A stretch of 64,000 bases of DNA from Candidatus Latescibacterota bacterium (GCA_965116875.1 OZ220733.1:3424001-3488000); one strand, 5' to 3'. Shown: positions 11,197 through 47,172, counted from the stretch's first letter. Numbers and translations: made by a program. Notes: generated by a model not told the origin, from the letters alone.

Positions 11197-11203
11197 ATGG
11201 GTA

Positions 11204-24543: not shown

Positions 24544-24560
24544 TAAAAGAGGGATACGGC

Positions 24561-25661: not shown

Positions 25662-25681
25662 GACAGGAATCGGACGCAGAC

Positions 25682-26755
25682 ATGCCAATTGCCGAAAGCG
25701 TCAGGGCGGCGCGGGTCGAACTGGATGCTCACGTGCGGGACACCGTGGCATGGCATTTCGACCCGGAAACGGGCTGCCCGTTCTGGCTGGAATTCGCAGC
25801 CGGTCTTGACTTCGATCCGCGCCGGGAGATCGGGGGCTATGAAGATCTGAAGATCCTCGGTCATTTTCAGGACGAATGGCTGCGCGGCGGCCCCGTGCGC
25901 CGTTGGATTCCCCGCGGAAGCGCGGAAAAGCGGACGTACGTGTTCGAAACCGGCGGATCCACCGGGGTGCCCAAGTACCGGATCAGCCAGGACGACTTCC
26001 AGACCGACTACGAGATCTTCAGCAGGCGCCTTTCAGACGAGACGTTTCCCATAGGGGCCGACTGGCTGATGCTGGGTCCCACGGGTCCGAGGCGGCTGCG
26101 GCTGGCGGTGGAATACCTCTGCCAGATCCGCGGCGGCATCTGTTTCCTGGTGGACCTGGACCCCAGATGGGTCAACAAGCTGATCGCGCGCGGCGCCCTC
26201 CAGGAGCTGGAGCTCTACAAGGCCCACGTGATCGATCAGGCGCTGACCATTCTTCGTGCAAACGACAACGTCAGGTGCATGTTCACAACGCCGAAGCTTC
26301 TGGAAGCAATCTGCGAAAAGATTTCATTGAAAAAGGCCGGCATTTCGGGGATATTTTGCGGTGGGACCGAGATGGACGCACAGTTCAACCGGTTCGCGAG
26401 AGAAGAGCTGGTTCCCGGAATCGACTTCGTGCCCACGTACGGAAATACGTTGATGGGCCTGGCGTATTCCAAGCCGCTCAAACCCTCGGACAATTACGCC
26501 ATTACCTATTATCCTCCGGTCCCGCGGGCCGTGATCGAACTGGTGGACCCCGATCATCCTGACGAACCGGTGGAATATAACGCGGTTGGCAGGGTCATGT
26601 TGACAACCCTGACCCGTGAGTTCTTCATGCCGCGGTTTCTGGAACGGGACGAGGGCGAACGGGCCGAACCCATCGAGGCGTTTCCCTGGGACGGGGTGAG
26701 GAATCTGGGTCTGTTCTCCGAGATGCAGGAGTCTGTTGTCGTCGGCGTATATTAA
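25682..26755 (+). CDS. EhpF/LuxE-like adenylate-forming enzyme
   Basis: WHFDPETGCPFW, FETGGSTGVPK P-loop, GGTE, YGNTLMG and ERD motifs as in EhpF-type AMP-binding proteins; alternative start at 25658. Confidence 0.75.
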   Translation: MPIAESVRAARVELDAHVRDTVAWHFDPETGCPFWLEFAAGLDFDPRREIGGYEDLKILGHFQDEWLRGGPVRRWIPRGSAEKRTYVFETGGSTGVPKYRISQDDFQTDYEIFSRRLSDETFPIGADWLMLGPTGPRRLRLAVEYLCQIRGGICFLVDLDPRWVNKLIARGALQELELYKAHVIDQALTILRANDNVRCMFTTPKLLEAICEKISLKKAGISGIFCGGTEMDAQFNRFAREELVPGIDFVPTYGNTLMGLAYSKPLKPSDNYAITYYPPVPRAVIELVDPDHPDEPVEYNAVGRVMLTTLTREFFMPRFLERDEGERAEPIEAFPWDGVRNLGLFSEMQESVVVGVY

Positions 26756-26788
26756 CGGGAAGGCTCGACAGCGATCCACGAGGATGGT

Positions 26789-28213
26789 ATGAACCATATC
26801 CCGGTTTTGCGTGCGGGAAATCCCTATACGAGTCTGGACATCCAGGAAATCCCCCACGTTGGGACCGGAGAACCGCTGGTGAAGGTCAGCCAGGCGAATC
26901 CGGGTCTGATCGCGAGGGACCTCAACGCCGCGCACGCGAATAGACGGACCCTGGATGCGATCAGCGTTTCCGACCTTGCAGCCATTACGCGCCGCGCCGG
27001 CGGATTGTTCGCGGAGGCGGACCTGCCGCTGGATGGCCAGACGCAATCGCCCGGGGACTACGTCCGACAGGTCTCCGGGACAACGGGAATTCCCGAAACC
27101 CTTTGCCGGGAGAATATGGAAAAGATCCGGTTGGCCTGCAGCCGGATCGACGCCGTGCTTACCGGTCTGACTCGCGGGCTGGATCTGGCAGTACTGGATG
27201 AGGGGTGGGTTCCGGAGAACGGCCGGCCATTGAGCTATGTCCGGCAGGCCGACGCGCTTGGCGCCGTTTTGCCAAGCAATTCGCCGGGCGTGCATTCGCT
27301 CTGGATTCCGGCGGTTTCGCTGAAGGCGCCCCTCGTGCTGAAACCCGGTCGTGAGGACCCATGGACGCCGTACCGGATTGCACAGGCGTTTTTCGCCGCG
27401 GGATGCCCGGGCGAAGCGTTCGCCATCTATCCCACCGGTCACGCAGGGGCCAACGAAATCCTCCTGCGGTGCGGGCGATCCCTTTTGTTTGGGGGCGGCG
27501 CTACTGTCGCGCCGTGGCTGCACGATCCGCGGGTATCCGTCCATGGTCCGGGCCGCAGCAAGGTGATTCTGGGAGAAGACGTGGTGGAACGCTGGGAGGA
27601 TTTCCTGGACGTGATCCTGGTTTCCATCGCGGCCAACGGAGGACGTTCCTGCATCAATGCGTCCGGCGTGTGGACACCCGCGTGCGGACGCGAGATTGCG
27701 GAGGCGATTGCGCACCGGCTCGCGCGAATCGAGGCGCGGCCGCTGAACGACCCACAAGCCCGGATTGCCGCATTTTCCAATCCGGCCGCGGCCGCCGGGA
27801 TTTCCAATAGGATCGACGTCCAGTTGAATAGCGGTGGAGCGGAGGATCTGACCGCTGGCCTGCGCGGCGGCCGGCTTGTCGAACTGGACGGCCTGACGTT
27901 CCTGAATCCGACGCTGGTATGGTGTGAATCTCCGGATCACCCTCTTGCAAATACGGAATACCTGTTTCCCTATTCAAGCGTGGTCGAAGTACCGCAGGCG
28001 GAGGTGGCCCATCGGATCGGGCCCAGCCTGGTGGTCACGGTATTGACAGAGGATGAAGACCTGATCGGCGATCTGCTGAATTCGCCTCAAGTGGATCGAC
28101 TGAACGCGGGGCCGATTCCCACGAACCGGATCTCATGGGACCAGCCGCACGAAGGGAATCTGTTCGATCACCTCTACCGCCAGCGGGCCTTTCAGTTCGC
28201 CCGGGGAGCGTAG
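26789..28213 (+). CDS. Aldehyde dehydrogenase-fold protein (EhpG/LuxC-like acyl reductase candidate)
   Basis: PSNSPGVH, LKPG, GRSCINAS catalytic Cys, EYLFP and PHEG; the usual ELGG is replaced by HGPGRSK. Confidence 0.8.
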   Translation: MNHIPVLRAGNPYTSLDIQEIPHVGTGEPLVKVSQANPGLIARDLNAAHANRRTLDAISVSDLAAITRRAGGLFAEADLPLDGQTQSPGDYVRQVSGTTGIPETLCRENMEKIRLACSRIDAVLTGLTRGLDLAVLDEGWVPENGRPLSYVRQADALGAVLPSNSPGVHSLWIPAVSLKAPLVLKPGREDPWTPYRIAQAFFAAGCPGEAFAIYPTGHAGANEILLRCGRSLLFGGGATVAPWLHDPRVSVHGPGRSKVILGEDVVERWEDFLDVILVSIAANGGRSCINASGVWTPACGREIAEAIAHRLARIEARPLNDPQARIAAFSNPAAAAGISNRIDVQLNSGGAEDLTAGLRGGRLVELDGLTFLNPTLVWCESPDHPLANTEYLFPYSSVVEVPQAEVAHRIGPSLVVTVLTEDEDLIGDLLNSPQVDRLNAGPIPTNRISWDQPHEGNLFDHLYRQRAFQFARGA

Positions 28214-28223
28214 GGGGGCCCGG

Positions 28224-29339
28224 ATGGAACCCTTCGACCTTCATCCTGCGCCGCGAGTGATCTTTGGAGAAGGTGCGCTGGCGCGGCTTCCGGAGCTGGC
28301 GGAAGGACTGGGTGGAGGACGGATTCTGCTCGTGACGGATCCGGGGATCGTCAACGCGGGCATCGCGGACAGGGCGTTGTGCCTGCTGCGGGGAGCGGGG
28401 CGCGACGTCTTCGTGTTCGACAACGTGGACGAGAACCCGACGACGGTCCACGTGGACGCGGGCGTGGAGGCGGCCTCGGCGCACGGCGGGACCGGGCTTA
28501 TAGTGGGCCTGGGCGGCGGCAGCGCGATGGATTGCGCCAAGGGGATCAATTTCATTCTCACGAACGGCGGGCGCATGGAGGACTACCGCGGGATGGGCGG
28601 GGCGCGGCGCCCGATGCTGCCGTCGATCGGCATTCCGACCACCGCGGGTACAGGGAGCGAGGCCCAGTCCTTTGCGTTGATTTCCAGGCCGGATACCCAC
28701 GAAAAGATGGCCTGCGGCGACCTCAAGGCTCGATTTCGAGGCGTCATCCTGGATCCTGAGCTTGCCGCGAGCACACCCGGAAACGTGGCTGCCGCGACGG
28801 GTATCGACGCCATCGCCCATGCCGTGGAGAGTTGCGTGTGTACGCGGCGGAACCCGGTATCGAGAATGTACGCGCTGGAGGCGTGGCGTCTGCTCGCATC
28901 CGGATTCGAAGCGGCGCTGGCGCCGGCGGCCGGCCCGGAGGCCAGGGCCGCCATGCTTCTGGGCGCGCATTTCGCGGGGGCGGCGATTGAAAATGCCATG
29001 CTGGGCGCCGCCCACGCATGCGCCAACCCGCTGACCGCCCGGTACGGGATCACGCACGGCGTCGCGGTGGGCGTGATGCTGCCGTCGGTGATCCGGTTCA
29101 ATGGAGAAACGGATGGCGCGCGCTACGAATGGTTCGGGTTGACTCCCGTTGCGCTTGCGGAACGGATCGAACGATTCATGCGCGCGGCGAATCTGCCGCT
29201 GCGCCTTCGAGAGTTGCGCGTGGAAGCGGAACGCCTCCCGGAACTGGCGTCGGATGCGGCGCGGGAGTGGACGGGTACGTTCAATCCGCGGCCGGTCCGG
29301 GAAACGGACTTTCGGGCGTTATATGAAGAGACGTATTGA
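28224..29339 (+). CDS. Iron-containing alcohol dehydrogenase
   Basis: GLGGGSAMDCAK, PTTAGTGSE, DAIAHAVE, HACAN and HG metal ligands. Confidence 0.92.
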   Translation: MEPFDLHPAPRVIFGEGALARLPELAEGLGGGRILLVTDPGIVNAGIADRALCLLRGAGRDVFVFDNVDENPTTVHVDAGVEAASAHGGTGLIVGLGGGSAMDCAKGINFILTNGGRMEDYRGMGGARRPMLPSIGIPTTAGTGSEAQSFALISRPDTHEKMACGDLKARFRGVILDPELAASTPGNVAAATGIDAIAHAVESCVCTRRNPVSRMYALEAWRLLASGFEAALAPAAGPEARAAMLLGAHFAGAAIENAMLGAAHACANPLTARYGITHGVAVGVMLPSVIRFNGETDGARYEWFGLTPVALAERIERFMRAANLPLRLRELRVEAERLPELASDAAREWTGTFNPRPVRETDFRALYEETY

Positions 29340-30480
29340 GTTTTATGCCCGGCGAAAGTCGACGTGCCGGTGGAACGTTTTTCTCGCTTTCTGCGTCTTG
29401 TACATACCGGTTTCCGTCTGCGTGGCCGGCGAGACGTCCTGGCCGCGGTTTCGGGGCGATGCGCAATCCACGGGCCTCGCGCATGAATCGCTGTCCGACA
29501 GCCTGATTGTCCTGTGGGTCGCCCGCGTGCCGGAAGGCATCGAGTCCACCGCGGCGATCCGGGAGGGAACCGTTTTCGTTGGCGGGCTGGACGGGAATCT
29601 CTATGCGTTTGATTTCGTCACCGGCGCGTTGAAGTGGAAGTACTCCGCCGGCGGGGAGATAAAGGCTTCGCCGCTGGTGGCGGATCACACGGTTTTCATC
29701 GGAGATGGGGACGGTGGTTTTCACGCGGTGGACGCGTCATCCGGAAAGGGGTTGTGGACGTACCGGACGGGAGGAGAAATCATCTCTTCCGCCGCGGCGT
29801 ACGAAGCGCGGGTGATCTTCGGGTCCTACGATCAATTCCTCTACTGCCTCGCAATGGCGGACGGGACCCTGGTGTGGAAGGTGGAGACGGAGGGCTACGT
29901 TCACGGGTCGCCGGCCCTGTGGGGCGGCCGCGCACTCCTCGCCGGTTGCGACGGTCTGCTGCGCATGGTGAATGCGGCCGGCGGACGTGAAGTCTCAAGG
30001 GTGGAGTTATTCGATTACGTCGCGGCGAGTGTTGCCGTGCGCGGCGGAAGGGCGTACGCGGGTACTTTCGGAAACCAGGTCCTGGGTGTGGACCTGTCGA
30101 AAGCCAAAGTCCGGTGGCGGTACGAGCACCCCACTCGCAAGTTTCCGTTCTACGCGTCTCCCGCGGTCAACGAGAAACACGTCATTGTGGCCGGCCGCGA
30201 CAAAATGGTGCGCGCGCTGCGTCCGGACGATGGCGAGGTGATCTGGATTCGGTCGTTTCGGTCCCGGCTGGATTCATCGCCCGTGATTGCGGGCGACCGG
30301 GTGTACGTGGGCACGACCGGCGGGAGGATTGTGGCGCTGGATCTGAAGTCGGGCGAACCGGAATGGGAGTTCTCCACCGGCTCGGGAGTGCTGGCTTCGC
30401 CAAGCGTGGCCGGCGGCAGGCTCGTGATCGGAACGACGGACGGGATTTTGTATTGTTTTGGAAGTGAGGAAAGGGAATGA
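29323..30480 (+). CDS. PQQ-binding-like (BamB-type) beta-propeller protein, secreted
   Basis: Signal peptide, WPRFRGD, repeated A.D..TG...W blades. Confidence 0.85.
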   Translation: MKRRIEFYARRKSTCRWNVFLAFCVLYIPVSVCVAGETSWPRFRGDAQSTGLAHESLSDSLIVLWVARVPEGIESTAAIREGTVFVGGLDGNLYAFDFVTGALKWKYSAGGEIKASPLVADHTVFIGDGDGGFHAVDASSGKGLWTYRTGGEIISSAAAYEARVIFGSYDQFLYCLAMADGTLVWKVETEGYVHGSPALWGGRALLAGCDGLLRMVNAAGGREVSRVELFDYVAASVAVRGGRAYAGTFGNQVLGVDLSKAKVRWRYEHPTRKFPFYASPAVNEKHVIVAGRDKMVRALRPDDGEVIWIRSFRSRLDSSPVIAGDRVYVGTTGGRIVALDLKSGEPEWEFSTGSGVLASPSVAGGRLVIGTTDGILYCFGSEERE

Positions 30481-31823
30481 GTACCCAGGTTCACGTCCCG
30501 GAGCCCGCGACCTCCAGGAAGGAATGGAGCGAAACCGCGGTCGGTAGCGTTTTCGTGTCCAACTATCCTCCGTATTCATTCTGGCGGGACGAGCACAATT
30601 CGCGGGTTGAGGCGATGTTGCAGGTTCCGGACCGGTCGGAGACGGAGGCGCCGCTCGGCCTGTATCTGCATATCCCGTTTTGCCGGAAACGGTGCAAATT
30701 CTGCTATTTTCGCGTGTATACGGACCGCAACAGCTCCGAGATCCAGGTCTATCTGGATGCGCTGGCCAGAGAGGTGGAAAACTACGCCGCTCTGCCCGGA
30801 ATTGCCGGACGCAGCCTGCAATTCGTCTACTTCGGAGGGGGTACGCCGTCGTATATCAGCGTGAAGCACCTGAAGGCGCTGGTGGACAGGCTGAAGGCCG
30901 TGTTGCCGTGGGACGACGCCGAAGAGGTCGCATTCGAGTGCGAGCCGGGCACGCTCACACAGCCGAAGGTGGCGGCCATTCGCGAGATCGGGGTGACGCG
31001 ACTGAGCCTGGGTCTGGAGAACCTGAATGACGAAATTCTGAGGGAGAACGGCCGGGCGCACGTGGGCAAAGAGATCTACCGGGCCATGGGCTGGGTGAAA
31101 ACGCAGGGGTTCGAACAGGTGAACGTGGACCTGATCTCGGGGATGGTGGGCGAAACGTGGGCGACGTGGAAGGAGACGGTGCAGGGCACGATTGACCTGG
31201 ATCCCGACAGCGTGACGATCTATCAGATGGAACTGCCGTTCAATACGACGTATTCGAAGTCGCTCCTGGATGGCAACGGTGTGACGGTTGCCGACTGGGA
31301 GACGAAACGGGCGTGGCACGCCCACGCGATCGACGCGTTCGGCGACGCGGGATACGAGATCTCAAGCGCATATACGATGGTCAAGAAGGGCCGCCCGAAG
31401 CGCTTTGTCTACCGGGACGCGCTCTGGCGGAGCGCCGATCTGATCGGCGCGGGCGTCGCTTCGTTTTCACACGTGGGCGGGATACACTTTCAGAATCACA
31501 CCCAATGGGACCCCTACGTCGACGCCTGCATGCAGGGTCGGCTGCCGCTGAACCGGTCCTTCGTTCCTACCGATGAGGAACGCCTGGTGCGCGAGATGAT
31601 CCTCCAGCTCAAGTTGGGCAGGATTGAAACAGCGTATTTTCAGGACAAATTCGGTCTCGATATTCTTCGGCAATTCGGTGATGCCTATCGAAAACTCCGG
31701 GAATACGGCATGCTGGATTTCGACGCAAACGAGGTCAGGCTGACTCGCAACGGATTGTTGCGGGTCGACCAGTTGTTGCCGGAGTTTTACGACGAAAAAT
31801 ACCGCGATTCGCGCTATACTTAG
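30477..31823 (+). CDS. HemN-like radical SAM enzyme (class C methyltransferase/decarboxylase clade)
   Basis: YLHIPFCRKRCKFCYF CX3CX2C, FGGGTPS, RLSLG and HemN C-terminal domain; ATGA overlap. Confidence 0.88.
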   Translation: MSTQVHVPEPATSRKEWSETAVGSVFVSNYPPYSFWRDEHNSRVEAMLQVPDRSETEAPLGLYLHIPFCRKRCKFCYFRVYTDRNSSEIQVYLDALAREVENYAALPGIAGRSLQFVYFGGGTPSYISVKHLKALVDRLKAVLPWDDAEEVAFECEPGTLTQPKVAAIREIGVTRLSLGLENLNDEILRENGRAHVGKEIYRAMGWVKTQGFEQVNVDLISGMVGETWATWKETVQGTIDLDPDSVTIYQMELPFNTTYSKSLLDGNGVTVADWETKRAWHAHAIDAFGDAGYEISSAYTMVKKGRPKRFVYRDALWRSADLIGAGVASFSHVGGIHFQNHTQWDPYVDACMQGRLPLNRSFVPTDEERLVREMILQLKLGRIETAYFQDKFGLDILRQFGDAYRKLREYGMLDFDANEVRLTRNGLLRVDQLLPEFYDEKYRDSRYT

Positions 31824-32010
31824 GGAATATCGAATATCACACCTGTCCAAGACATAAACCAACCTTGTACCGGTGTGGTCGGCGTTCTCGAGAACGAGGG
31901 CATGCAGGTTATTGGTCTCCTAACAGCGGTTTAATGACGTCCAATGAACCATATAACGCGTGGTCATTGAGCTTGTCGAAATGCCCGCTATTCAAAAGCC
32001 ATTCGATCCT

Positions 32011-32104
32011 TCGCCGGCCCTTCGCCCCTTCGACAGGCTCAGGGACCACAAGCTCAGGGGACGGCTCGGCTTCTGCGATGCCCCCTCAAGGGGGGAGTGA
32101 TTGG
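32011..32104 (-). repeat. Relative of the 276-416 intergenic repeat
   Basis: CCCTTCGACAGGCTCAGGG...CCCCCTCAAGGGGGGAGTGATTGG is the reverse complement of part of 276-416. Confidence 0.75.
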
Positions 32105-32216
32105 TCCATCAAGCCGGCGCATGCGTTTCGTGCCATCCATCTGATCGCGGCTGAGCATAGCGAAGCGGCGCCAGGTACGCCTGAGCTGTAGCTTCACTTT
32201 CTCGCGGAGTCTGTCT

Positions 32217-33431
32217 ATGAAATACAGGTTTTATTTGACGTTCGCGTCTGTACTGTGCTTTTCTTCCGCACACGCGGATTGGCCCCAGTGGCTGGGTCCC
32301 GACCGAACGGGGATTTCTACCGAAACGGAATTCCGGAAGACCTGGCCGAAAAACGGCCCTGAGGTCCTGTGGAAGAAGAACCTGGGCGCAGGATTTTCAG
32401 GGATCTCGGTGGCGGATGGCCGGGTATTCACCATGTTTGCGGAGGGTGACGATGAGTTCGTCGTCTGTCTGAATGAGGAATCGGGCGATGAAATCTGGCG
32501 GTTCAGGACGGGGGGCATGTTCGAGGAGTGGCAGGGTGGCGACGGTCCCCGGTCGCAGCCGACGGTGGACGGAGAACGGGTCTACGTCCTCGGCGCAGAG
32601 GGGACGCTGTACGCGCTGACGGCGGCAAACGGCGCAAAGATCTGGACCGTGGACCTGGTCGACGGACTCGGCGGCCGGTTTCCCAGGTTCGGATTTTCGA
32701 CTTCGCCGCTGGTGGAAGGCGACTTCCTGTACCTGGAGGCGGCGACGCGCGACGGTACGTTTCTGGCGCTTCAAAGGAAAGACGGCAACGTCGCCTGGGC
32801 TTCGCAGAACGACGTGGCTTCGTATTCCTCGCCCATCGCGGTGGATCTGGCCGGCGTGCGTCAGGTGGTCTATTTTTCCGGGGACGCCCTGGTGGGGCTT
32901 TCGCCGGCGGACGGGTCCCTTTACTGGAGGTATCCCTGGAAGACGTCGTACGATCTGAACATCGCAACGCCGATCCTCGTGCCGCCGGATCGGGTCTTCA
33001 TTTCCTCGGGCTACGACCATGGCGCCGCGTTGTTGCGAATCGAGGCAGGCAGCGACGGGTTCTCGGCGACTCGGGTCTGGGAGAGCCGGCGGATGAAGAA
33101 CCATTTCGGCACGTCCGTGCTGGTGGGGGACTATCTGTACGGTTTCGATAACGCCATCCTGAAGTGCATCGAAGCACGGACCGGGAAAGAGCAGTGGAAA
33201 CACCGCGGGTATGGCAAGGGGGCGTTGATCTACGCCGACGGCCATCTCCTGCTGATGAGTGACAACGGAAGGCTGGCCCTGGCAACGGCAACGCCGGACG
33301 GATTCGAGGAAAAGGCCGGCGCGCAGGTGCTCGACGGCCGCAGCTGGACGATGCCGACCCTGGCCAACGGCCGCGTGTTCGTCAGGGATATGCGGAAAAT
33401 CGTTTGCCTGGACCTTCGTTCCGGCGGATAG
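32217..33431 (+). CDS. PQQ-binding-like beta-propeller protein, secreted
   Basis: Signal peptide ending AHA, DWPQWLGPDRTG, GPRSQP, YSSP and W-repeat blades. Confidence 0.88.
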   Translation: MKYRFYLTFASVLCFSSAHADWPQWLGPDRTGISTETEFRKTWPKNGPEVLWKKNLGAGFSGISVADGRVFTMFAEGDDEFVVCLNEESGDEIWRFRTGGMFEEWQGGDGPRSQPTVDGERVYVLGAEGTLYALTAANGAKIWTVDLVDGLGGRFPRFGFSTSPLVEGDFLYLEAATRDGTFLALQRKDGNVAWASQNDVASYSSPIAVDLAGVRQVVYFSGDALVGLSPADGSLYWRYPWKTSYDLNIATPILVPPDRVFISSGYDHGAALLRIEAGSDGFSATRVWESRRMKNHFGTSVLVGDYLYGFDNAILKCIEARTGKEQWKHRGYGKGALIYADGHLLLMSDNGRLALATATPDGFEEKAGAQVLDGRSWTMPTLANGRVFVRDMRKIVCLDLRSGG

Positions 33432-33449
33432 CGTCTACCATTGAGACTT

Positions 33450-33637: not shown

Positions 33638-33683
33638 TGTTCCTGCGACGCAAGGTCGGGACGTCCTGGTGAAAGGAATTCGA

Positions 33684-37075: not shown

Positions 37076-37094
37076 GTTTCCGCGGGAAGTGCCA

Positions 37095-38363: not shown

Positions 38364-39311
38364 GAATTGAGAATTAAGAATTGCGTTTGCTGAAAGATAC
38401 CGGCTATCTATCCGAAGACGAATTCGCCAGCATTCATGCCGATGCTGAAGAATTTTGTCGGCTTCTGGCAGCGATTCAGAAGACCGCGAAGGACAAACGC
38501 AGCGCCTGACTCTGATTCTCAATTCTCAATTTTTAATTCTTAATTCTTAATTGATTGTTCCCCATGCAAATTGCCTAATTCGCCGCCGGTTCATTCGCAT
38601 CCATTCCGATGCGGAAGAACTTTGTCGGCTTCTCGCAGCGATTCAGAAGACCGCGAAGGACAAACGCAGCTCCTGACTCTAATTCTTAATTCTCAATTCT
38701 TAATTCTTAATTCGTATGGTGTTGTAGCGAGATTGTGGAGACGAAATGAAGGATGATAACATCGTCCAGGAAAAAGGCTATGGATTTGCAGTTCGAGTGG
38801 TACGGCTCTATCAACACTTGTCAACGGAAAAGAAGGAATTCGTGCTATCAAAGCAATTGTTACGCTCTGGAACCGGTATTGGAGCTAACATCGAAGAGGC
38901 GATTGGTGGTCAGTCCCGTGCAGACTTTGTCAGCAAGATGGCCATCGCCTATAAAGAAGCTCGTGAAAGCAGCTATTGGCTGCGTTTACTGAAAGATACA
39001 GACTATTTGTCCGAAGACGAATTCGCCAGCATTCATTCCGATGCTACAGAACTTTGTCGGCTACTCGCAGCGATTCAGAAGACCGCGAAGGACAAACGTA
39101 CCGCCAAATCCTAATTCGTAACTCTTAATTTGTAATTTTAATCTGTTAATTCCCATGCAAATTGCCTAATTCGCCGCCGGTTCATTCGCATCCACTCCGA
39201 TGCGGAAGATCTTTGTCGGCTTCTCGCAGCGATTCAAAAGACCGCGAAGGACAAACGCAGCGCCTGACTCCGACTCTAATTCTTAATTCGTAATTCTTAA
39301 TTCTCAATTGA
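38351..39311 (+). repeat. Heptamer arrays (AATTAAG / AATTCTT) interleaved with three partial copies of the four-helix-bundle gene 3' end and two copies of the GT4 start
   Basis: Gene-end copies at ~38381-38509, ~38597-38676 and ~39188-39267; CCCATGCAAATTGCCTAATTCGCCGCCGG at 38561 and 39152 mimics 39318-39346. Confidence 0.85.
38746..39114 (+). CDS. Four-helix-bundle protein (23S rRNA IVS-protein/Avd-like family)
   Basis: KQLLRSGTGIGANIEEA...SRADFVSKMAIAYKEARESSYWLRLL signature; GGAG SD. Confidence 0.9.
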   Translation: MKDDNIVQEKGYGFAVRVVRLYQHLSTEKKEFVLSKQLLRSGTGIGANIEEAIGGQSRADFVSKMAIAYKEARESSYWLRLLKDTDYLSEDEFASIHSDATELCRLLAAIQKTAKDKRTAKS

Positions 39312-39320
39312 TTAATCCCC

Positions 39321-40613: not shown

Positions 40614-40694
40614 TCCGTCCTCGGACCGAGGTTCCGGCGGCTTGCTCCGGCCCGAAGAGCGACTTTATCAACGGACTGCAAAGGGGGAGAAAAT

Positions 40695-41195
40695 ATGCCG
40701 GCCGAACAGGCAACCACGCCAGGGCTGACCTGGTTGATATTCGCCGCCATGACGGTAGGGGCATGGGGACTGTACGGAATCTTTCTGCATACCGGGCAAA
40801 TTGCAATGGCCGATCCCGTGAACGGACGGTACAAAGCGTTCCTGCTGGTGGGCGTGGCGTATCTGCTGACCGCGGTCATCGGTTCCATGATCGTCCTCTG
40901 GGTGAACGGCTCGGACTGGTCGTTTCCCGTGCGCGGGTTCACGTGGTCTCTGCTTGCAGGCACCGTGGGCGCCATCGGCGCATTCGGCGTCCTGCTCGCG
41001 TTCGGGGCCCGGGGCACGCCTGCCGTTGTGATGTCGATCGTGTTCGCGGGGGCGCCCATTGTCAACGCCGTCGTGTCGATGGCCGTGCACCCGCCCGCCG
41101 GTGGATGGGGCGCGCTGAACTGGCAGTTCGTGCTGGGCATCGTACTCGCGGCGATGGGGGGGTGCCTCGTGACGCTCTTCAAGCCGGCGTCGTGA
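40695..41195 (+). CDS. Small DMT/EamA-like membrane protein
   Basis: About five hydrophobic helices; WGLYG and VMSIVFAGAPIVN motifs. Confidence 0.75.
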   Translation: MPAEQATTPGLTWLIFAAMTVGAWGLYGIFLHTGQIAMADPVNGRYKAFLLVGVAYLLTAVIGSMIVLWVNGSDWSFPVRGFTWSLLAGTVGAIGAFGVLLAFGARGTPAVVMSIVFAGAPIVNAVVSMAVHPPAGGWGALNWQFVLGIVLAAMGGCLVTLFKPAS

Positions 41196-41281
41196 CCTCT
41201 CCGCCCGGCCGCTGGCGATACCGTCTGGCGTCTCCCGTCTCCCCCCATTCGGAATCGTTCAATTCGTGGTTGTGTGGTTTT

Positions 41282-41306
41282 GTAGGGGCGTCCCTTGTGG
41301 GCGCCC
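41282..41306 (+). repeat. GTAG-type REP
   Basis: GTAG-GGGCGTCC-cttgt-GGGCGCCC. Confidence 0.7.
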
Positions 41307-41331
41307 GGTGGAATCCCTGAGAGGAAGTCCT

Positions 41332-41772
41332 GTGCCAAGCGAATTCCGGACCACGCGAAGAGTTGAGTTTTCGGATACGGACATGGCCGGGATTGTGCAT
41401 TTTTCCCGGTTTTTCGATTTCATGGAGGCGGCCGAACACGCGTTTCTGCGTTCGATCGGCACGAGCGTGGCGGGCACATGGGAAGGGCGCAGGGTCGGAT
41501 GGCCCCGGGTGGGCGCGTCGTGTGACTATCTGAATCCTGTCCGGTTCGAGGACCGGCTGGATGTGCGGTTGAAAGTGATCCGAAAAGGGACGAGTTCCAT
41601 AACCTACGGTTTTGAGTTCCGGCGTGACAATGTCCTTATCGCCCGCGGCCGGTTGAGCGCGGTGTTCTGCGAGTGCGCCCCGGGAGAGCCGCTCCGTTCC
41701 ATGCCGATACCCGACTTCATCGCCGATCAGATCCAGGAGGCGAAGGATGGAGGGGACGATGCTGAGGGCTGA
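41332..41772 (+). CDS. 4HBT/YbgC-family acyl-CoA thioesterase
   Basis: RRVEFSDTDMAGIVHFSRFF hotdog motif; GTG start after GAGGA. Confidence 0.88.
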   Translation: MPSEFRTTRRVEFSDTDMAGIVHFSRFFDFMEAAEHAFLRSIGTSVAGTWEGRRVGWPRVGASCDYLNPVRFEDRLDVRLKVIRKGTSSITYGFEFRRDNVLIARGRLSAVFCECAPGEPLRSMPIPDFIADQIQEAKDGGDDAEG

Positions 41773-42415
41773 GCGGGTATCGAAGCAGTATGGCGACGTA
41801 TCCGTCTTGCGGAACGTCTCGTTCGAGATGGCGCCCGGTCAGTCGATGGCAGTTGTCGGGCCTTCGGGGTCGGGCAAGAGTACGCTGCTGCACGTGATCG
41901 GCACGCTGGACAGACCGTCCTCCGGCCGGGTGGCGTTCGACGGCCGGGACCCATACGCCCTCTCCGGGAAGGAGCTCGCGCGCTTTCGGAACCAGGGGAT
42001 CGGATTCGTCTTCCAGGACCACCATCTGCTGCCTCAGTTTTCCGTTCTGGAGAACGTGCTTCTGCCGACGCTGGCGTTCCGGGACGAGAAACGGGACGCC
42101 GCTGCAAGGGCGCGGGACCTGATCGAACGGGTCAGTCTCGGGCATCGGACCCACCACCGCCCCGCCGCCCTGTCGGGGGGAGAACGCCAGCGGGTGGCGG
42201 TGGCGCGAGCGCTGGTCAACAGGCCGGCGCTGCTTCTTTGCGATGAGCCGACGGGCAGTCTGGATCGGGCCCGGGCGAATGAGGTCTTCGATCTGCTCTT
42301 CGAGTTGCACGCTCAGGAACAGACCATTCTGATCGGCGTTACGCACAGCCCGGAAATGGCCGCGAGATTCGAGCGCCGGATGTCGCTGCGGGAGGGAACT
42401 TGCGTAGAAGCCTGA
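41747..42415 (+). CDS. ABC transporter ATP-binding protein (LolD/MacB type)
   Basis: GPSGSGKST, LSGGERQRVA, DEPTG and H-loop. Confidence 0.93.
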   Translation: MEGTMLRAERVSKQYGDVSVLRNVSFEMAPGQSMAVVGPSGSGKSTLLHVIGTLDRPSSGRVAFDGRDPYALSGKELARFRNQGIGFVFQDHHLLPQFSVLENVLLPTLAFRDEKRDAAARARDLIERVSLGHRTHHRPAALSGGERQRVAVARALVNRPALLLCDEPTGSLDRARANEVFDLLFELHAQEQTILIGVTHSPEMAARFERRMSLREGTCVEA

Positions 42416-45400
42416 CGTTCTTCTGGCGAATTCATCTGTCCGTCCTGCTGGGTGTGGCCGTGGCCACGGCTGTGCTCACCGGCGCCCTGCTGGTGGGCGA
42501 TTCGGTGCGCGACAGCCTGACAGACCTGACCCTCGACCGTCTGGGCGAAATCGACCACGCGCTCGTTTCGGAGCGCTTTTTTCGTGCGGGTCTTGCGCGG
42601 GACGTCGAGAGGGCGAGCGATGGACTGACCGTTGTACCGGCGGTGACCCTCGGGGGATCGGCGGTGCATGCAAGCGCCGGGACACGGGCCTCCCGCGTTA
42701 CCATTCTGGGTGTCGATTCCCGGTTCGGGGAGCTGTTCGACGAGGAAATACCCGTCCCGGACCGCCTCGGCGCCGCGACGCCATTCGTCGCCAATGAGTC
42801 GCTGAGGAGCGAACTGAACGCCCGTGTGGGCGACGCGGTCCTGCTTTCGTTCGAGCTTCCTGCCGACGTCCACAGGGAATCGTTGTTTGGGAGGGAAGAG
42901 GTTTCAGAGTCAATACAGACCGTACGTGTGCGGCTCGCGGGCGTCGTGCCGGACCGGGGGATGGGTCGTTTCGGATTGCGCGCGCGGCAGGATGCGCCCC
43001 TCAATGCTTTCGTGTCCCTGCCCGTATTGCAGGAAACGCTGGGGTTGCCCGGCCGGGTGAACATGCTCCTGGTCTCCGCGGATTCGCACGGCCCCGGCGA
43101 TCCGGCGCATGCGCTTTCCCGGGCTGCAACGCTGGATGATCTGGGGCTCACGATGCGGGTGGATGCCGGCTATTTCTCGGTTGAGAGCGCGGGATATCTG
43201 TTGAAGCCCCACGTCGCCCAGGCGGTTCTGGGTGTGGCGGATGGGATTGGGATGCCCCGAATGGCGGTACTGACCTACCTGGCCAATACCCTCCGGGTGG
43301 GGAACCGCGAATTGCCCTATTCGACGATTGCCTCGATGGACGCGGGGGGCGTCGGATCGCTGCGACTGGCGGACGGGCGACCGGCGCCGGTCCCCGGAGA
43401 GGATGAAGTGCTGCTGAATGCCTGGGCGGCGGCGGATCTTCACGCCAGGACCGGAGACACCGTGGACGTGGCCTATTTCGAAGCCGGGCCGAAGGGCGCG
43501 TTGAACACGCGGCGGGTCGCGTTTCGCGTGGCCGGCGTCGTCTCCATGGAGGGATTGGGCGCGGATTCGCTGCTGACGCCGGCGTTTCCGGGACTTCACG
43601 GCGTGGATGACATGCACGCGTGGGACCCGCCCTTCCCGGTGGACCTGAAGCGTATACGGCCCGAGGACGAGGCCTACTGGGACGCTTATCGCGCCGCCCC
43701 CAAGGCCTTCGTGTCGTCCGCCACGGGACAACGACTCTGGCGAAGTCGATTCGGCAGTCTGACCTCCATCCGGTTGGCGCGCGCGCCGGGAATGGACGTC
43801 AGACAATCCGCCGGGCGATTTCGGTCGGGAATCCGGGATGCCCTCACGCCCGAATCCGCCGGATTGGTCTTCCAACCCGTGAGAAAACAGGGTCTGGCCG
43901 CTTCTTCGGGGTCTACGGACTTCGGCGGTCTGTTCGTTGGATTCAGTCTGTTCCTGATTGTCTCGGCGGCGTTGCTCGTTGGCCTCCTCTTCCGGCTCGG
44001 AGTGGAGCAACGCGCAAACGAGGTGGGCGTGCTGATGGCGTCGGGTTTTGCGACAGGCACGATCCGAGGCCGGTTTCTGCGTGAGGCCGTCTGGCTGTCC
44101 GGGTTGGGGGGCGCGATCGGGCTTGCGGGAGGACTGGCGTACGGATGGGTCATGATCACGGGGTTGCGCACCTGGTGGGCCCCGGCCGTCGGAACCGGCG
44201 AACTCTCGCTGCACGTGAACGCGTCCAGTCTGACGGCCGGATTTCTGATTTCGCAGGCTGTGGTCCTGTTCACGATTTTAATGACGGTCCGGCGATTGGG
44301 CGCACTGCCCGTACGCTCTCTGCTGTCCGGTACCGTTCAACAGCCGGACGCCGCCGGCGGGCGCCGGATCAAAGCGTATGCGATCGGAAGCTTCGGACTG
44401 GCGGCGGCCTGCCTCGCAGGCGCGTCAGGCGCTACGCGCGAAGCTGCGATTGCGCTGTTTTTCGGTTGCGGTGCGTTTCTGCTGATATCGGGCATATGTG
44501 TCCTCGCCATCCGGTTGCACGGACGCCGCCGCGCAGCGGAGCCGGGGATCTGGAGTATGGGTGTGCGGAACAGCGCGCGCAATCCGGGGCGAAGCCTCCT
44601 GTGCGCTTCGTTGCTCGCAAGCGCCTGTTTCGTGGTTGTTGCGGTTGGCGCCCATCGCCGTATCGATGCCGGCGCGGATGCGTTGAACAGCCGGACGTCG
44701 GGTGGAGGCGGGTTTCAACTCGTCGCCGAATCGGATGTGCCGCTCTACCACGATATCAATTCGGAGGACGGCCGGTTCGAACTGGGGTTTTCCGTTGAGG
44801 ATGCAGGGATCCTGGACAGCGCGCGGGTCATGGCGTTCCGCGTCCTGCCGGGAGAGGACGTGAGCTGTCTGAATCTCTACAGGCCCCGCCATCCCAGAGT
44901 TCTGGGCGTGCCCGATGCGTTCATACGACGGGGCGGCTTCACCTTCGACCGGCTCCTGGCGGAAACGGAAGAGCCGTGGACTTTATTGACGCGACGACCG
45001 GAACCGGATGTGATACCCGCTTTCGGAGACGCGAACTCGGTGACCTGGATTCTGCACATGAAACTGGGCGACGAGATCCCGATCCGAACGGACACGGGCG
45101 AGGTCGTCAGGCTGCGTCTCGTGGGACTTTTGAAGAACAGTATCTTCCAGAGTGAACTGCTTGTGTCCGAGTCGAATTTCACCGCGCATTTCCCCGAACG
45201 GAGCGGTTATGGGCATTTTCTGATCGAGACCGACCGACCCCGTGAACTGGGGGCGCTGCTGGAGCTGAGGTTACAGGACGCCGGTCTGGATGCCATGACG
45301 GTCTCGGCCAGGCTGGCCCGTTTCCGGACAGTGGAAAATACGTACCTGTCGACGTTTCAGACGCTGGGCGGTCTGGGGGTGCTTCTGGGTACGTTGGGTC

Positions 45401-45720
45401 TTGGGATCGTGATGGTGCGCAACGTCATCGAGCGGCGCACCGAACTGGCGGCGCTGAGGGCGCTCGGGTTTCGCAGGTCGACGATCTCGGTACTTCTGTT
45501 CGTGGAGAACGGATTCCTGATGGCAACGGGCATGGCAATCGGCGTCGTGGCCGCGATCGTGACGGCGATACCCCATGCCTCCGGCGGCGGCCTGCCCTGG
45601 ATGTCCTTAATGGCCACGCTGGGTCTTATACTCGGCGCCGGCCTGGCCGCGGGCGCCGCCGGAATCTTCGCCGCGCTGAAAACCCCGCTGTTGCCGGCGT
45701 TGAAACGGGAAGGAGCATGA
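42400..45720 (+). CDS. Large FtsX/MacB-type ABC permease with two periplasmic domains
   Basis: Two FtsX repeats (EQRANEVGVLMASG; ERRTELAALRALG), 1106 aa. Confidence 0.88.
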   Translation: MRRSLTFFWRIHLSVLLGVAVATAVLTGALLVGDSVRDSLTDLTLDRLGEIDHALVSERFFRAGLARDVERASDGLTVVPAVTLGGSAVHASAGTRASRVTILGVDSRFGELFDEEIPVPDRLGAATPFVANESLRSELNARVGDAVLLSFELPADVHRESLFGREEVSESIQTVRVRLAGVVPDRGMGRFGLRARQDAPLNAFVSLPVLQETLGLPGRVNMLLVSADSHGPGDPAHALSRAATLDDLGLTMRVDAGYFSVESAGYLLKPHVAQAVLGVADGIGMPRMAVLTYLANTLRVGNRELPYSTIASMDAGGVGSLRLADGRPAPVPGEDEVLLNAWAAADLHARTGDTVDVAYFEAGPKGALNTRRVAFRVAGVVSMEGLGADSLLTPAFPGLHGVDDMHAWDPPFPVDLKRIRPEDEAYWDAYRAAPKAFVSSATGQRLWRSRFGSLTSIRLARAPGMDVRQSAGRFRSGIRDALTPESAGLVFQPVRKQGLAASSGSTDFGGLFVGFSLFLIVSAALLVGLLFRLGVEQRANEVGVLMASGFATGTIRGRFLREAVWLSGLGGAIGLAGGLAYGWVMITGLRTWWAPAVGTGELSLHVNASSLTAGFLISQAVVLFTILMTVRRLGALPVRSLLSGTVQQPDAAGGRRIKAYAIGSFGLAAACLAGASGATREAAIALFFGCGAFLLISGICVLAIRLHGRRRAAEPGIWSMGVRNSARNPGRSLLCASLLASACFVVVAVGAHRRIDAGADALNSRTSGGGGFQLVAESDVPLYHDINSEDGRFELGFSVEDAGILDSARVMAFRVLPGEDVSCLNLYRPRHPRVLGVPDAFIRRGGFTFDRLLAETEEPWTLLTRRPEPDVIPAFGDANSVTWILHMKLGDEIPIRTDTGEVVRLRLVGLLKNSIFQSELLVSESNFTAHFPERSGYGHFLIETDRPRELGALLELRLQDAGLDAMTVSARLARFRTVENTYLSTFQTLGGLGVLLGTLGLGIVMVRNVIERRTELAALRALGFRRSTISVLLFVENGFLMATGMAIGVVAAIVTAIPHASGGGLPWMSLMATLGLILGAGLAAGAAGIFAALKTPLLPALKREGA

Positions 45721-45876
45721 ATGCGCTTTCGGCTGTCGAATGGCGGATTTTTCCGGGGCCGGACAACAAGGTTCAGCGGCCAAATTAAGAATACTGTTTT
45801 GGGATCGCAGAGTGTATCTTCAATGAAAGGCACGTAGCAGCACTTCACCGATCATACGTCGTGAAGGGAGCATGAA

Positions 45877-47172
45877 ATGAATCGAATGACTGTGATCCTG
45901 ACCGCTTTCTGTCTGGTGGTTGTCGCCGGACCGGCGGCGTCGAACTGGCCGCATTGGCGCGGTCCGAACCGCAACGGGCTGGTCGACGGGAGTCCGCCCG
46001 TACAGTGGAGCGAACAGAAGAATATCCGATGGAAGGCGCCCATTCCAGGCCTGGGGCACGCAACGCCGATTGTCTGGGGCGACCGTATTTTCGTGCAAAC
46101 CGCGGTGAGGACTGACAAACTTGCTGCGGACACCGGCAAGGGAAGGCGACGCCCGCCACCCAATCTGTTTCAGTACAGGGTCCTGGCGCTGGACCGGCAT
46201 ACCGGGGAAACCGTCTGGGAAAAGACGGTTCGGGAGGCCCGGCCTCACGAGGGAATGCACCGCACGGCATCGTTTGCGTCTCCGTCGGGCATCACGGACG
46301 GAGAGAACCTCTATGCGTATTTCGGATCACAGGGGCTTTATTGCCTCGATATGGACGGCAATCTGAGGTGGGAGAAAGACCTGGGCAAATACTGGAGCAG
46401 AAGCGCCTTCGGCGAGGGGGCTTCGCCGACGATCCACGGCAACGCGCTGTTGATCAACTGGGACCACGAAGGGGACTCGTTCATCGTCGCGCTGGACAAG
46501 AAAACGGGAAGGGAACTCTGGCGCAAGGCTCGAGATGAGGTGACGTCCTGGTCCACGCCGCTGACCGTGGACCGCGGCAAGCAGACCCAGGTGATCGTGA
46601 GTGCGTCGGCCCGCACCCGGAGCTACGACCTGAAAGATGGGGCGCAGATCTGGGAATGCGGCGGCCTGGGGACGAACGTGATACCGACGCCGCTGTATGC
46701 AAACGGGGTGGTGTACGTGGCCAGCGGTCACAGCAGTCCCGCCATGCAGGCCATCTCGCTGGATACGGCAAGGGGCGATATCTCGGATTCGGATTCGGTA
46801 CTCTGGTCGATAACGCGGGATACCCCGTACGTGTCGTCACCGCTGCTCGATGGCGACAGGCTGTTTTTCGTGAAAGGCAGGGGGGCGTTCCTGTCTTGCT
46901 ACAATCCCGCAACGGGCGAACCGCGCTTCGGGCCCATACGTCTGAACGGGATCGGCTTCGTCTACGCGTCTCTGGTTGGCGCGGACGGCCGCGTGTACAT
47001 TTCCGATCTGGACGGGAAGACGCTCGTCATCAGGAACGGCCCTGAATTCGAAATCCTGGCGACGAACACCCTGGATGAAGGGAGCGGGGCGTCCCCTGTG
47101 GTTGTGGGGGACGCGCTCTATCTGAGGGGGCGCAGCCACCTATATTGTATCGCGGAAGACCGGAAGAATTGA
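45877..47172 (+). CDS. PQQ-binding-like beta-propeller protein, secreted
   Basis: Signal peptide, NWPHWRGPNRNG, GEGASP, WSTP, YVSSP blades. Confidence 0.88.
   Translation: MNRMTVILTAFCLVVVAGPAASNWPHWRGPNRNGLVDGSPPVQWSEQKNIRWKAPIPGLGHATPIVWGDRIFVQTAVRTDKLAADTGKGRRRPPPNLFQYRVLALDRHTGETVWEKTVREARPHEGMHRTASFASPSGITDGENLYAYFGSQGLYCLDMDGNLRWEKDLGKYWSRSAFGEGASPTIHGNALLINWDHEGDSFIVALDKKTGRELWRKARDEVTSWSTPLTVDRGKQTQVIVSASARTRSYDLKDGAQIWECGGLGTNVIPTPLYANGVVYVASGHSSPAMQAISLDTARGDISDSDSVLWSITRDTPYVSSPLLDGDRLFFVKGRGAFLSCYNPATGEPRFGPIRLNGIGFVYASLVGADGRVYISDLDGKTLVIRNGPEFEILATNTLDEGSGASPVVVGDALYLRGRSHLYCIAEDRKN

Follow-up and report, generated by a model that had tools for sequence, protein, structure and literature searches.

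A core-less gene cluster of Latescibacterota and Planctomycetota that pairs secreted PQQ-like propellers with a candidate aryl-acid tailoring pathway

What does a run of genes do when it encodes enzymes that would activate, halogenate, reduce and glycosylate a small molecule and none that would build its scaffold? The question is raised by a stretch of 64,000 nucleotides from a Candidatus Latescibacterota bacterium (GCA_965116875.1 OZ220733.1:3424001-3488000; by the window we mean this whole stretch), in which about 17 genes, all co-directional, span positions 25658-50144 of the plus strand. A first-pass annotation, made from the sequence alone, had read this locus as a biosynthetic cluster without a core enzyme, the source of a new small molecule or cofactor serving pyrroloquinoline quinone (PQQ)-like propellers. 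We find that the locus is one functional unit and that it is built in two layers, a base layer and an aryl-acid add-on; the earlier interpretation is partly supported.

Families were assigned by Pfam and NCBIfam scans of 22 consecutive plus-strand open reading frames (ORFs) and then of 20 other long ORFs in the window. All of the enzyme families named in the first-pass annotation are present on the plus strand, and the genes are, as it said, co-directional and in part overlapping, with several start codons that overlap the preceding stop codon. Its claim that no nonribosomal peptide synthetase (NRPS), polyketide synthase (PKS), phz or pqq gene is present also held, in that none of these domains was found in the 42 scanned long ORFs. 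A regulator, a carrier protein or a scaffold-forming enzyme was not seen in any version of the cluster. The proposed extent of 25682-47172 captured a real block and stopped short; the conserved unit continues through a pair of transport genes to 50144. Rfam gave no family match within the window, and promoter- and terminator-like sites occur in it at chance level only.

Is this a single unit or a set of unrelated neighbors? Three Latescibacterota families share the gene order. In five of six genomes of two families, it runs from a gene for an EhpF-like adenylase through those for an aldehyde dehydrogenase (ALDH)-fold protein, an iron-containing alcohol dehydrogenase (Fe-ADH), propeller 1, a HemN-like radical S-adenosylmethionine (SAM) enzyme (then, in some, propeller 2 and a TonB-dependent receptor), a PaaK-like ligase, a halogenase-like enzyme, a family 4 glycosyltransferase (GT4), a small membrane protein, a thioesterase and a LolD-like ATPase to a giant FtsX permease. 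The sixth genome (G022) has a cluster split after the ligase gene, with the halogenase and GT4 genes elsewhere in the genome. The flanking genes, including an upstream GFO gene and a glycosidase gene, are not kept in the six genomes compared. Eight further genomes of the class were examined; the full set is present in four (G156, G100, G086 and G099), one (G149) is ended by the end of its contig, and the remaining three have only the EhpF and ALDH-fold genes, with or without Fe-ADH, at the locus and a halogenase gene at another site in the genome. In two Planctomycetota (G294 and G224) the whole set again forms one compact cluster, rearranged to propeller, propeller, DUF3311, sodium:solute symporter (SSF), EhpF, ALDH, Fe-ADH, propeller 1, HemN-like, halogenase, GT4, thioesterase, small membrane gene, PaaK-like, LolD and FtsX. 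This re-clustering in another order points to selection for linkage and not to mere inheritance.

Do the genes also travel together when genomes are sampled at large? In an even sample of 151 Latescibacterota species genomes and a sample of 151 from Planctomycetota, EhpF was found in 83 Latescibacterota, and the halogenase in 81, all of them EhpF positive (0/68 of the EhpF-negative genomes); the two EhpF-positive genomes without a halogenase match are 84% and 86% complete. The GT4 gene is present in 87 Latescibacterota, including 81/83 EhpF-positive genomes and six EhpF-negative genomes of other classes. Whole genera are without the set (e.g., g3, 0/2; g17, 0/8; and g22, 0/5); it is therefore accessory and is gained and lost as a block. 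Among the Planctomycetota, EhpF occurs in 28 genomes, the HemN-like gene in exactly the same 28, GT4 in all 28, and the halogenase in 27 of the 28 and in 0/123 others. Five genomes of other groups were also compared; the three with EhpF (G042 and two Planctomycetota) have the halogenase, HemN-like, giant FtsX and GT4 genes, scattered over contigs, and the Binatia and Rhodothermales genomes have none of the five. Based on the order and co-occurrence kept across two phyla, which exceed chance, 25658-50144 is one functional unit. The genes thus recur together in other genomes, and no enzyme reaches the curated NCBIfam cut-off of a family from a known heme or catabolic pathway; on both counts the first-pass proposal stands.

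How is the unit built? The base layer consists of the secreted propellers, a GT4 with an N-terminal CxxC motif, the hotdog thioesterase, the LolD-like ATPase and the giant FtsX permease, and it also occurs alone. The GT4 gene is found in 42/151 Planctomycetota, 28 of them with EhpF and 14 without it. No gene of the aryl-acid module is present in the five EhpF-free loci examined; four hold one or more propellers, GT4, in some cases the thioesterase, LolD and the giant FtsX, and the fifth (G165) holds a propeller and GT4 only.

The first-pass annotation had proposed that cluster presence would correlate with propeller copy number across phyla, and this correlation is positive in both. We took the number of PF13360 matches per genome as propeller number; these are matches and do not give copy numbers, since scoring covered no more than 17 candidates in each genome, and genome size and kinship confound the comparison. 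In the window's own class of Latescibacterota, EhpF-positive genomes (n = 83) have a median of 12 matches (range, 7 to 22) and EhpF-negative genomes (n = 32) a median of 4 (range, 0 to 13), with the EhpF-positive genomes ahead in 4/4 mixed genera. The corresponding values in Planctomycetota are 17 (range, 8 to 20; n = 28) and 5 (range, 0 to 23; n = 123). Sorting the Planctomycetota by GT4 instead gives 17 with the gene (range, 8 to 21; n = 42) and 4 without it (range, 0 to 23; n = 109), and genomes with GT4 and no EhpF still have a median of 16.5 (range, 9 to 21; n = 14). In other classes of Latescibacterota the medians are 13 with GT4 (range, 11 to 18; n = 6) and 2.5 without (range, 0 to 11; n = 30). 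Six of the 109 GT4-free Planctomycetota still have at least 13 matches. GT4 is therefore a better predictor of propeller number than EhpF is. Since the GT4 and ATP-binding cassette (ABC) layer exists with propellers and without the aryl-acid enzymes, the small molecule is no general requirement of the propellers, and that part of the first-pass interpretation falls.

What would the add-on do? It opens with an EhpF/GriC-like stand-alone adenylase (25658-26755, +; likely start at the ATG at 25682; 365 amino acids [aa]). With the EhpF structure 3hgu in the PDB it gives a phmmer E value of 3.8e-43, residues 10-352 against 10-355 of 369. It is without the C-terminal domain of ANL enzymes; its length is that of EhpF, and Pfam matches only part of the AMP-binding N-domain. 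Of the label "EhpF/LuxE-like" given at first, the EhpF half is right and the LuxE half is not, as neither this protein nor the ALDH-fold protein matches the LuxE or LuxC Pfam families at E values up to 5. Orthologues are 75-95% identical across the order, where 37/41 relatives have one, and 51-62% identical in Planctomycetota. The best 120 database relatives are 73-90% identical (those named KSB1 or Calditrichaeota, 73-75%), and a word-limited search gave at least 8000 relatives at an E value of 1e-5. Homologues on Streptomyces plasmids carry the name arylcarboxylate reductase, and one Streptomyces homologue has an ALDH gene directly after it, beside genes for DAHP synthase and PabB. In three genomes of genus g16 (G087, G125 and G143) the EhpF match falls in an open frame of 833-835 aa, compared with about 365-400 elsewhere, which may reflect a fusion with the upstream propeller gene or an open upstream frame, and at one locus (L082, in G136) the adenylase and ALDH genes are set about 7.3 kb apart.

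The ALDH-fold gene (26789-28213, +; Pfam Aldedh, 41.2 bits) adjoins the EhpF gene in 19/21 aligned loci and lies directly downstream of it in both phyla. Its product has an invariant Cys288 and Asn164 and, at the position of the general-base Glu (the Glu of ELGGK in KauB), an invariant His252. A His at this position is typical of ALDH-fold enzymes that do not hydrolyze the thioester. We consider it likely that the protein is the adenylase's thioester-forming reductase partner, and the pair fits a predicted two-protein aryl carboxylate reductase of the EhpF or GriC-GriD kind, which supports the first-pass parallel with EhpF. The Fe-ADH gene (28224-29339, +; Pfam Fe-ADH, 147.4 bits) lies 3' of the ALDH-fold gene in both phyla. 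In the parts of the published account available to us, GriC forms the acyl-AMP of 3-amino-4-hydroxybenzoic acid (3,4-AHBA), and GriD reduces this acyl-AMP to the aldehyde (PMC10179220). A source of 3,4-AHBA, sought as PF01959, was not found in the source genome.

The second group of add-on enzymes would act on the substrate itself. The flavin-dependent halogenase-like enzyme is of the PltA/CmlS type (37089-38363, +; PDB halogenases, 6.2e-67), with GGGPAG at residue 14 and WFWYIP at residue 220. GxGxxG, WxWxIP and a conserved Lys are signatures of flavin-dependent halogenases. Here GGGPAG, K75, which aligns with a Lys of PltA, W220xW222xI224 P225 and G299 D300 A301 do not vary among 25 orthologues with identities as low as 40%, and the WxWxIP assignment made earlier is borne out. 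The best solved relatives are PltA (1.6e-56), CndH, Mpy16, CmlS, ChlB4 and Bmp2; at 214.5 bits against a cut-off of 900 for the CmlS equivalog NF033113, the enzyme is a member of the family and not a CmlS equivalog. The HemN-like radical SAM enzyme (30477-31823, +) is below all NCBIfam cut-offs, with 181.3 bits for HemN TIGR00538 (cut-off, 324.95), 179.3 bits for ChuW/HutW TIGR04107 (cut-off, 400) and 164 bits for HemW (cut-off, 205). C69, C73 and C76, followed by Y77 and F78, are invariant in 25 orthologues, as is GGGTP, and the fourth Cys of CxxxCxxCxC, which HemN needs, is absent. Its PDB matches include HemN (5.2e-33) and the methyltransferase NocN (1.7e-24), and it is probably a C-methylase. 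Some Planctomycetota hold a second HemN-like gene (39-42% identity) that adjoins a second halogenase-like gene (43%), at G232:C1:334322-336805 and G286:C10:20329-23118, so that the two kinds of gene may be a recurring pair. The PaaK-like acyl- or aryl-coenzyme A (CoA) ligase (35798-37075, +) has a clear fold family from the PDB (phenylacetate-CoA ligase 4r1l, 1.1e-63), with 207 bits for TIGR02155 against a cut-off of 646.3, and its gene is inside the cluster in both phyla.

Three secreted propellers accompany these enzymes. Propeller 1 is of the PQQ_3/ACSF4 type (29323-30480, +; PF13570, 194 bits; cut-off, 133); its ORF opens at 29149, the likely start is M59 at 29323, and the gene overlaps the Fe-ADH stop and the HemN-like start. 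It has an N-terminal hydrophobic leader, and in three phyla it adjoins the HemN-like gene. Propellers 2 (32217-33431, +; PF13360, 156.6 bits) and 3 (45877-47172, +; PF13360, 118.3 bits) are of the BamB/PQQ_2 type. Propeller 2 varies in its presence in the cluster, and propeller 3, which has a signal-like N terminus, varies in position between genomes. Are these proteins PQQ-like in more than fold? They are proteins of the BamB/PQQ_2 type, which alters the original description, and they stay below the PQQ-dehydrogenase cut-offs (TIGR03075 and TIGR03074; best, 76.9 bits, compared with 480.05), and at 385-431 aa they compare with 595 positions in the PF01011 profile. For BamB itself (TIGR03300; cut-off, 285.2) they score 150.6, 72.7 and 44 bits, below the cut-off, with membership of the PF13360 fold family. 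Among solved structures, they are closest to BamB, designed repeat propellers and a cofactor-free tetrathionate hydrolase. A search of the source genome for PqqC (TIGR02111) gave no match, which says little because the control genomes likewise gave none.

The other base-layer genes follow, with a small membrane gene among them. In the GT4 glycosyltransferase (39321-40613, +; Pfam Glycos_transf_1 and others), C15 and C18 of the CxxC motif are invariant, and the motif is kept in 5/5 EhpF-free loci. The "DMT protein" of the first-pass annotation, DMT standing for drug/metabolite transporter, is a real and conserved membrane gene, apparently read there in the wrong frame: the long ORF at 40562-41320 has 36-55% identity in relatives and is rejected, whereas 40695-41195 (+; 166 aa; five predicted helices) has a conserved frame with 64-90% identity in 9/9 relatives tested. 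The 166-aa protein has no Pfam match, the EamA/DMT profiles included; Atlas clusters of it bear automatic DMT-permease names, a structure model gives five helices at a low pLDDT of 59.7, and it is possibly a half-size DMT. The hotdog thioesterase (41266-41772, +; 4HBT/YbgC-like; PF13279 and PF03061) has an invariant D39, and in G258, at a locus without EhpF, its gene is again flanked by GT4 and LolD. The LolD/MacB-type ATPase (41747-42415, +; TIGR02211, 260 bits; cut-off, 307.75) has further NCBIfam matches to MacB, YbbA and DevA, and its gene is always 5' of that for the giant FtsX permease (42400-45720, +). The permease is a fused double FtsX of 1106 aa, with PF02687 in two stretches and a MacB-like periplasmic domain (PF12704); its identity is 43-78% within the class and 31-40% in Planctomycetota.

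Where would the substrate come from? The TonB-dependent receptor (33669-35801, +) has both plug and barrel Pfam domains and exceeds the cut-off of the siderophore-receptor subfamily (TIGR01783, 263.7 bits; cut-off, 223.5); it lies inside the cluster in seven genomes (G022, G017, G026, G007, G100, G086 and G042). The unit ends with a TAXI-family solute-binding protein of a tripartite ATP-independent periplasmic (TRAP) transporter (47213-48211, +; TIGR02122, 255.4 bits; cut-off, 84.35) and an adjoining fused TRAP permease (48213-50144, +; TIGR02123, 544.6 bits; cut-off, 320.65), a pairing that G007 shares. A TAXI orthologue is present in 37/41 relatives, TAXI and EhpF are missing from the same four genomes, and in 10/16 genomes of genus g6 the TAXI gene is about 9-12 kb from the halogenase gene. 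Many cluster versions have a DUF3311 gene and an SSF symporter gene beside the halogenase or adenylase gene, a pair annotated in Sinorhizobium, in the portion of the source at hand, as a monocarboxylate permease (MctP) locus (PMC9100948). The SSF orthologue is found in 58/151 Latescibacterota, all 58 EhpF positive and none in family f1, and its closest relative in the source genome is only 25% identical. In G166, genes for UbiA, DUF420 and a DeoC aldolase lie 3' of the SSF gene; they were left out of the system because other versions do not show them. In the lineages checked for both importers, a TRAP or an SSF carboxylate importer is tied to the pathway. We infer that import of a carboxylic acid is part of the system's function, and since the set includes a TonB receptor as well as carboxylate importers of two kinds, the acid probably comes from outside and is not made de novo.

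In total, these observations are consistent with a mechanism that we favor tentatively, at somewhat less than an even chance, in which an imported aromatic acid is activated as a CoA ester, acquires halogen and methyl groups, is converted to the alcohol and, once glycosylated, goes to the envelope. The genomes themselves show the gene content, the family memberships, the kept order, the co-occurrence, the two layers and the link with propeller number; we infer the substrate class, the direction and order of the steps and the role of the propellers; the substrate of the add-on is most likely an aromatic carboxylic acid. The acid would enter through the siderophore-type TonB receptor and TAXI-TRAP here, and through a DUF3311/SSF symporter of the MctP type in other lineages. 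The PaaK-like ligase would convert it to the CoA thioester, on which the PltA/CmlS-type halogenase would install halogen and the HemN-like enzyme, as the probable C-methylase, would make its modification; the thioesterase would then release the free acid. We posit that the EhpF/GriC-like adenylase and its ALDH-fold partner would reduce this acid to the aldehyde, that Fe-ADH would carry the aldehyde to the alcohol, and that the GT4 would glycosylate the alcohol. In this model, the five-helix membrane protein and the ABC machine would deliver the conjugate into the periplasm or to the outer membrane, for the propellers to handle there.

Several points weigh against this mechanism. PltA, Mpy16, Bmp2, CndH and ChlB4 act on carrier-bound substrates, and the cluster holds neither a carrier protein nor a scaffold-building enzyme, even though the closest solved halogenases are carrier dependent; CoA would have to stand in for the carrier as the holder of the halogenase substrate. 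No flavin reductase gene lies within the cluster, to which that search was confined. Methylation by the HemN-like enzyme is a guess, given that no family cut-off is reached. Could ALDH and Fe-ADH run oxidatively? They could, and the importers could serve the re-uptake of a secreted product in place of precursor supply. The importers also vary: the TonB receptor is absent from the cluster in G038, G015, G156, G099 and the Planctomycetota loci, TAXI was not found in 5/5 cluster-bearing genomes outside the order, and SSF was not found in 25/83 EhpF-positive Latescibacterota, some of which were not checked for TAXI. With the PaaK-like ligase as search anchor, 47 loci were recovered, 16 in close relatives with the whole cluster and 31 without other cluster genes, which makes the PaaK-like gene alone a poor marker. 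Because the base layer exists without the aryl-acid module, the GT4 acceptor need not be an aromatic alcohol. Finally, kinship among the genomes means that fewer independent events lie behind the co-occurrence than its counts would suggest.

What else could the unit be? Given a siderophore-type receptor that is inside the cluster in many genomes of the Fibrobacteres-Chlorobi-Bacteroidetes (FCB) group, with export and import genes side by side, one might think of a metallophore-type cycle, in which a small aromatic (phenolate or carboxylate) chelator is made, a MacB-type ABC pump exports it, and the TonB receptor and TRAP or SSF carriers retrieve the loaded or spent ligand. MacB-type pumps do export pyoverdine. 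However, the scanned ORFs gave no NRPS or NRPS-independent siderophore synthetase, a scan that allowed 3 mismatches gave no Fur-box-like site (with a consensus that comes from other phyla), Planctomycetota clusters and some Latescibacterota clusters do not include the receptor, carboxylate reduction destroys a metal ligand, and we know of no siderophore route through TRAP or SSF carriers; we regard such a cycle as unlikely. Rather unlikely, too, is that the unit takes up and breaks down or detoxifies an exogenous, perhaps halogenated, aromatic acid or alcohol, with Fe-ADH and ALDH oxidizing it, the ligase making the CoA ester and the ABC pump expelling toxic intermediates. The set does have the layout of a utilization locus, from a TonB receptor through periplasmic proteins and an inner-membrane importer to cytoplasmic enzymes; importers of three kinds go with it, and a PaaK-like ligase together with a hotdog thioesterase and an SSF permease is reminiscent of phenylacetate catabolism. 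Yet genes for ring cleavage, ring reduction or beta-oxidation are in no cluster version, the ALDH-fold protein is without the general-base Glu for hydrolytic aldehyde oxidation and always has an EhpF-type adenylase as its partner, the motifs of the halogenase favor installation of the halogen, and a GT4 and a radical SAM enzyme would be unusual in catabolism.

Does the tailored aromatic instead serve the propellers, delivered to the periplasm as their ligand, prosthetic group or substrate? Propellers are inside or beside the cluster in every version, and EhpF-positive genomes have more PF13360 matches in both phyla. Against this, propeller richness tracks GT4 rather than the aryl-acid enzymes: 14 Planctomycetota and 6 Latescibacterota that are without EhpF still combine GT4 with many propellers, the six propeller-rich GT4-free Planctomycetota run counter to the link, genome size and kinship confound it, and a cofactor pocket is not in evidence in these BamB-type proteins. 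We hold this service role, too, to be rather improbable. An envelope glycolipid would account for a base layer of GT4, a YbgC-like thioesterase and a LolD-like ABC, with an ATPase that matches a DevA-type exporter: a fatty acid would be reduced to the fatty alcohol and receive a sugar, and the Lol/MacB-like ABC and the propellers would bring the product to the outer membrane. What could be seen of a preprint on related clusters notes matches to a gene of the glycolipid-exporter cassette in the bartoloside cluster (10.64898/2026.08.03.742642). The proposal is nonetheless very unlikely, given that no LuxE or LuxC family match was found and that all informative relatives of the adenylase, ligase and halogenase use aromatic or pyrrole acids. 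Least probable by far is a patchwork of unrelated adjoining operons. Its inner parts do vary (the TonB receptor, propellers 2 and 3 and a small insert), the cluster is split in some genomes, and the set is scattered in G044 and G045; but the genes co-occur in two phyla even when unlinked, they re-cluster in a rearranged order in Planctomycetota, and the flanking genes are not conserved, so that the co-occurrence counts already contradict it.

Returning to the favored tailoring of an imported aromatic acid, how might the two layers be joined? We speculate, as a doubtful possibility, that the propellers, the CxxC-GT4 and the giant FtsX ABC form an unrecognized envelope system of bacteria of the FCB and Planctomycetes-Verrucomicrobia-Chlamydiae (PVC) groups, into which, in 28/42 Planctomycetota and 81/87 Latescibacterota carriers, a plug-in module delivers a scavenged aromatic acid turned into a halogenated, methylated aryl-alcohol glycoside that is the system's ligand, cofactor or cargo; a very large family of orphan propellers would thereby gain a function in phyla where PQQ synthesis was not found. 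The set is not rare, as the add-on is present in 83/151 Latescibacterota and 28/151 Planctomycetota of the sampled species genomes. If the favored reading is true, it describes a widespread halogenase-bearing pathway without a known product, in bacteria whose relatives' records are labeled sponge or reef metagenomes, and it ties a small-molecule pathway to a large orphan family of BamB/PQQ-like propellers. The entry points would be the soluble TAXI binding protein and a planctomycete in culture, the isolate of locus L058, in which every gene tested is present. It would also mean that tailoring-only clusters can be found and delimited by co-occurrence and not by core-enzyme rules.

Other features of the window lie within or around the unit. 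Between the halogenase and GT4 genes is a 23S-rRNA-IVP four-helix-bundle gene (38746-39114, +; PF05635, 97.6 bits), which lies outside the system; its presence in only 4/16 clusters of close relatives marks it as a small variable insert, and the 38-40 kb bin that holds it has a G+C content of 0.519. The ORF at 31865-32191 is probably not a gene, as it has no family match and is found in 3/16 close loci. Directly upstream (19142-25661, +) are genes for a LarA-like member of the lactate racemase family, a PcRGLX/GH127-like glycosidase and two Gfo/Idh/MocA oxidoreductases, which are kept within the genus only and resemble a separate sugar-related unit. A complete type I Zorya anti-phage system lies at 1264-8784 (+; PADLOC matches, 9.7e-48 to 6.2e-287), with ZorA (1264-3012, +), ZorB (3009-3890, +), ZorC with an EH signature (3887-5650, +) and the SNF2 helicase ZorD (5782-8784, +), all assigned by PADLOC. 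The region 3' of it (8930-12649), where the ORFs at 8930-10246 and 12134-12649 have no family match and the G+C content at 10001-12000 is 0.425 compared with about 0.6 elsewhere, may be a mobile or defense-island remnant. Two adjoining large WD40-repeat proteins of 630 and 942 aa are encoded at 58934-63715 (+). The stretch is contained in sequencing runs labeled sponge and reef metagenomes, and one sponge metatranscriptome run gave short contigs, 95-99% alike, that cover 28/30 bins, a weak hint of transcription because DNA carry-over is possible.

How does the unit compare with systems already known? With EhpF/EhpG and GriC/GriD it shares a stand-alone adenylase that has no ANL C-terminal domain and matches EhpF from end to end, followed by an ALDH-fold protein, the same pairing as in the Streptomyces plasmid locus. 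It differs in that the adenylase has no more than 30-36% identity with its Pantoea and Streptomyces counterparts and is far more conserved here, in a context without phenazine or 3,4-AHBA genes, and in that Fe-ADH, importers, GT4, an ABC machine and propellers go with it. Among the papers that our literature search listed, none takes the EhpF family beyond phenazines. Phenylacetate uptake and activation use the PaaK ligase, the PaaI hotdog thioesterase and an SSF permease. The present system resembles this set in its PaaK-like ligase, its hotdog thioesterase and, in other lineages, its SSF carrier, and differs from it in a ligase below the PaaK equivalog cut-off and in having no paaABCDE ring-oxygenase or later paa genes. 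Like the MacB, Lol and DevBCA extractors, the ABC machine combines a LolD-like ATPase with an FtsX permease that has the MacB periplasmic core domain; unlike them, it has an ATPase below the LolD cut-off and a permease in which two FtsX units are fused into one chain of 1106 aa. The cluster holds no gene for a membrane-fusion or outer-membrane partner, and the machine is always beside the CxxC-GT4 and propellers.

Among halogenating systems, the planctomycete genes for dibromo-anisic acid, described in the accessible portion of the report as a chorismate lyase, BaaA, and a Bmp5-like brominase, BaaB (10.1101/723874), can be set aside as a different, two-gene system. Literature searches found nothing that joins Planctomycetes, a halogenase, PQQ and radical SAM, and for a flavin-dependent halogenase with TonB-dependent and PQQ-like proteins the only relevant work was a preprint that defines a "Halo_AMP" pseudoclass of orphan sponge-microbiome clusters, each with a flavin halogenase and an AMP-binding gene (10.64898/2026.08.03.742642). 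The preprint text, as far as it was available, reports PQQ-like domains and TonB transporter, glycosyltransferase, thioesterase, radical SAM and ABC genes in these clusters, names BagE-type ligases and Bmp2-type halogenases as best matches, and assigns 9% of the gene cluster families to Latescibacterota, with no product known. That same available text treats the clusters as sponge natural-product clusters; the terms "Planctomycet," "aldehyde dehydrogenase" and "alcohol dehydrogenase" do not appear in it, nor were carboxylate importers, the two-layer build or the link to propeller number met there. The preprint needed a custom rule, which fits the first-pass expectation that rule-based tools would miss such a cluster. 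On the definition given in that text, our locus is a Halo_AMP cluster, by its halogenase (37089-38363) and its two AMP-binding genes (35798-37075 and 25658-26755), and with that preprint the cluster type is no longer unreported.

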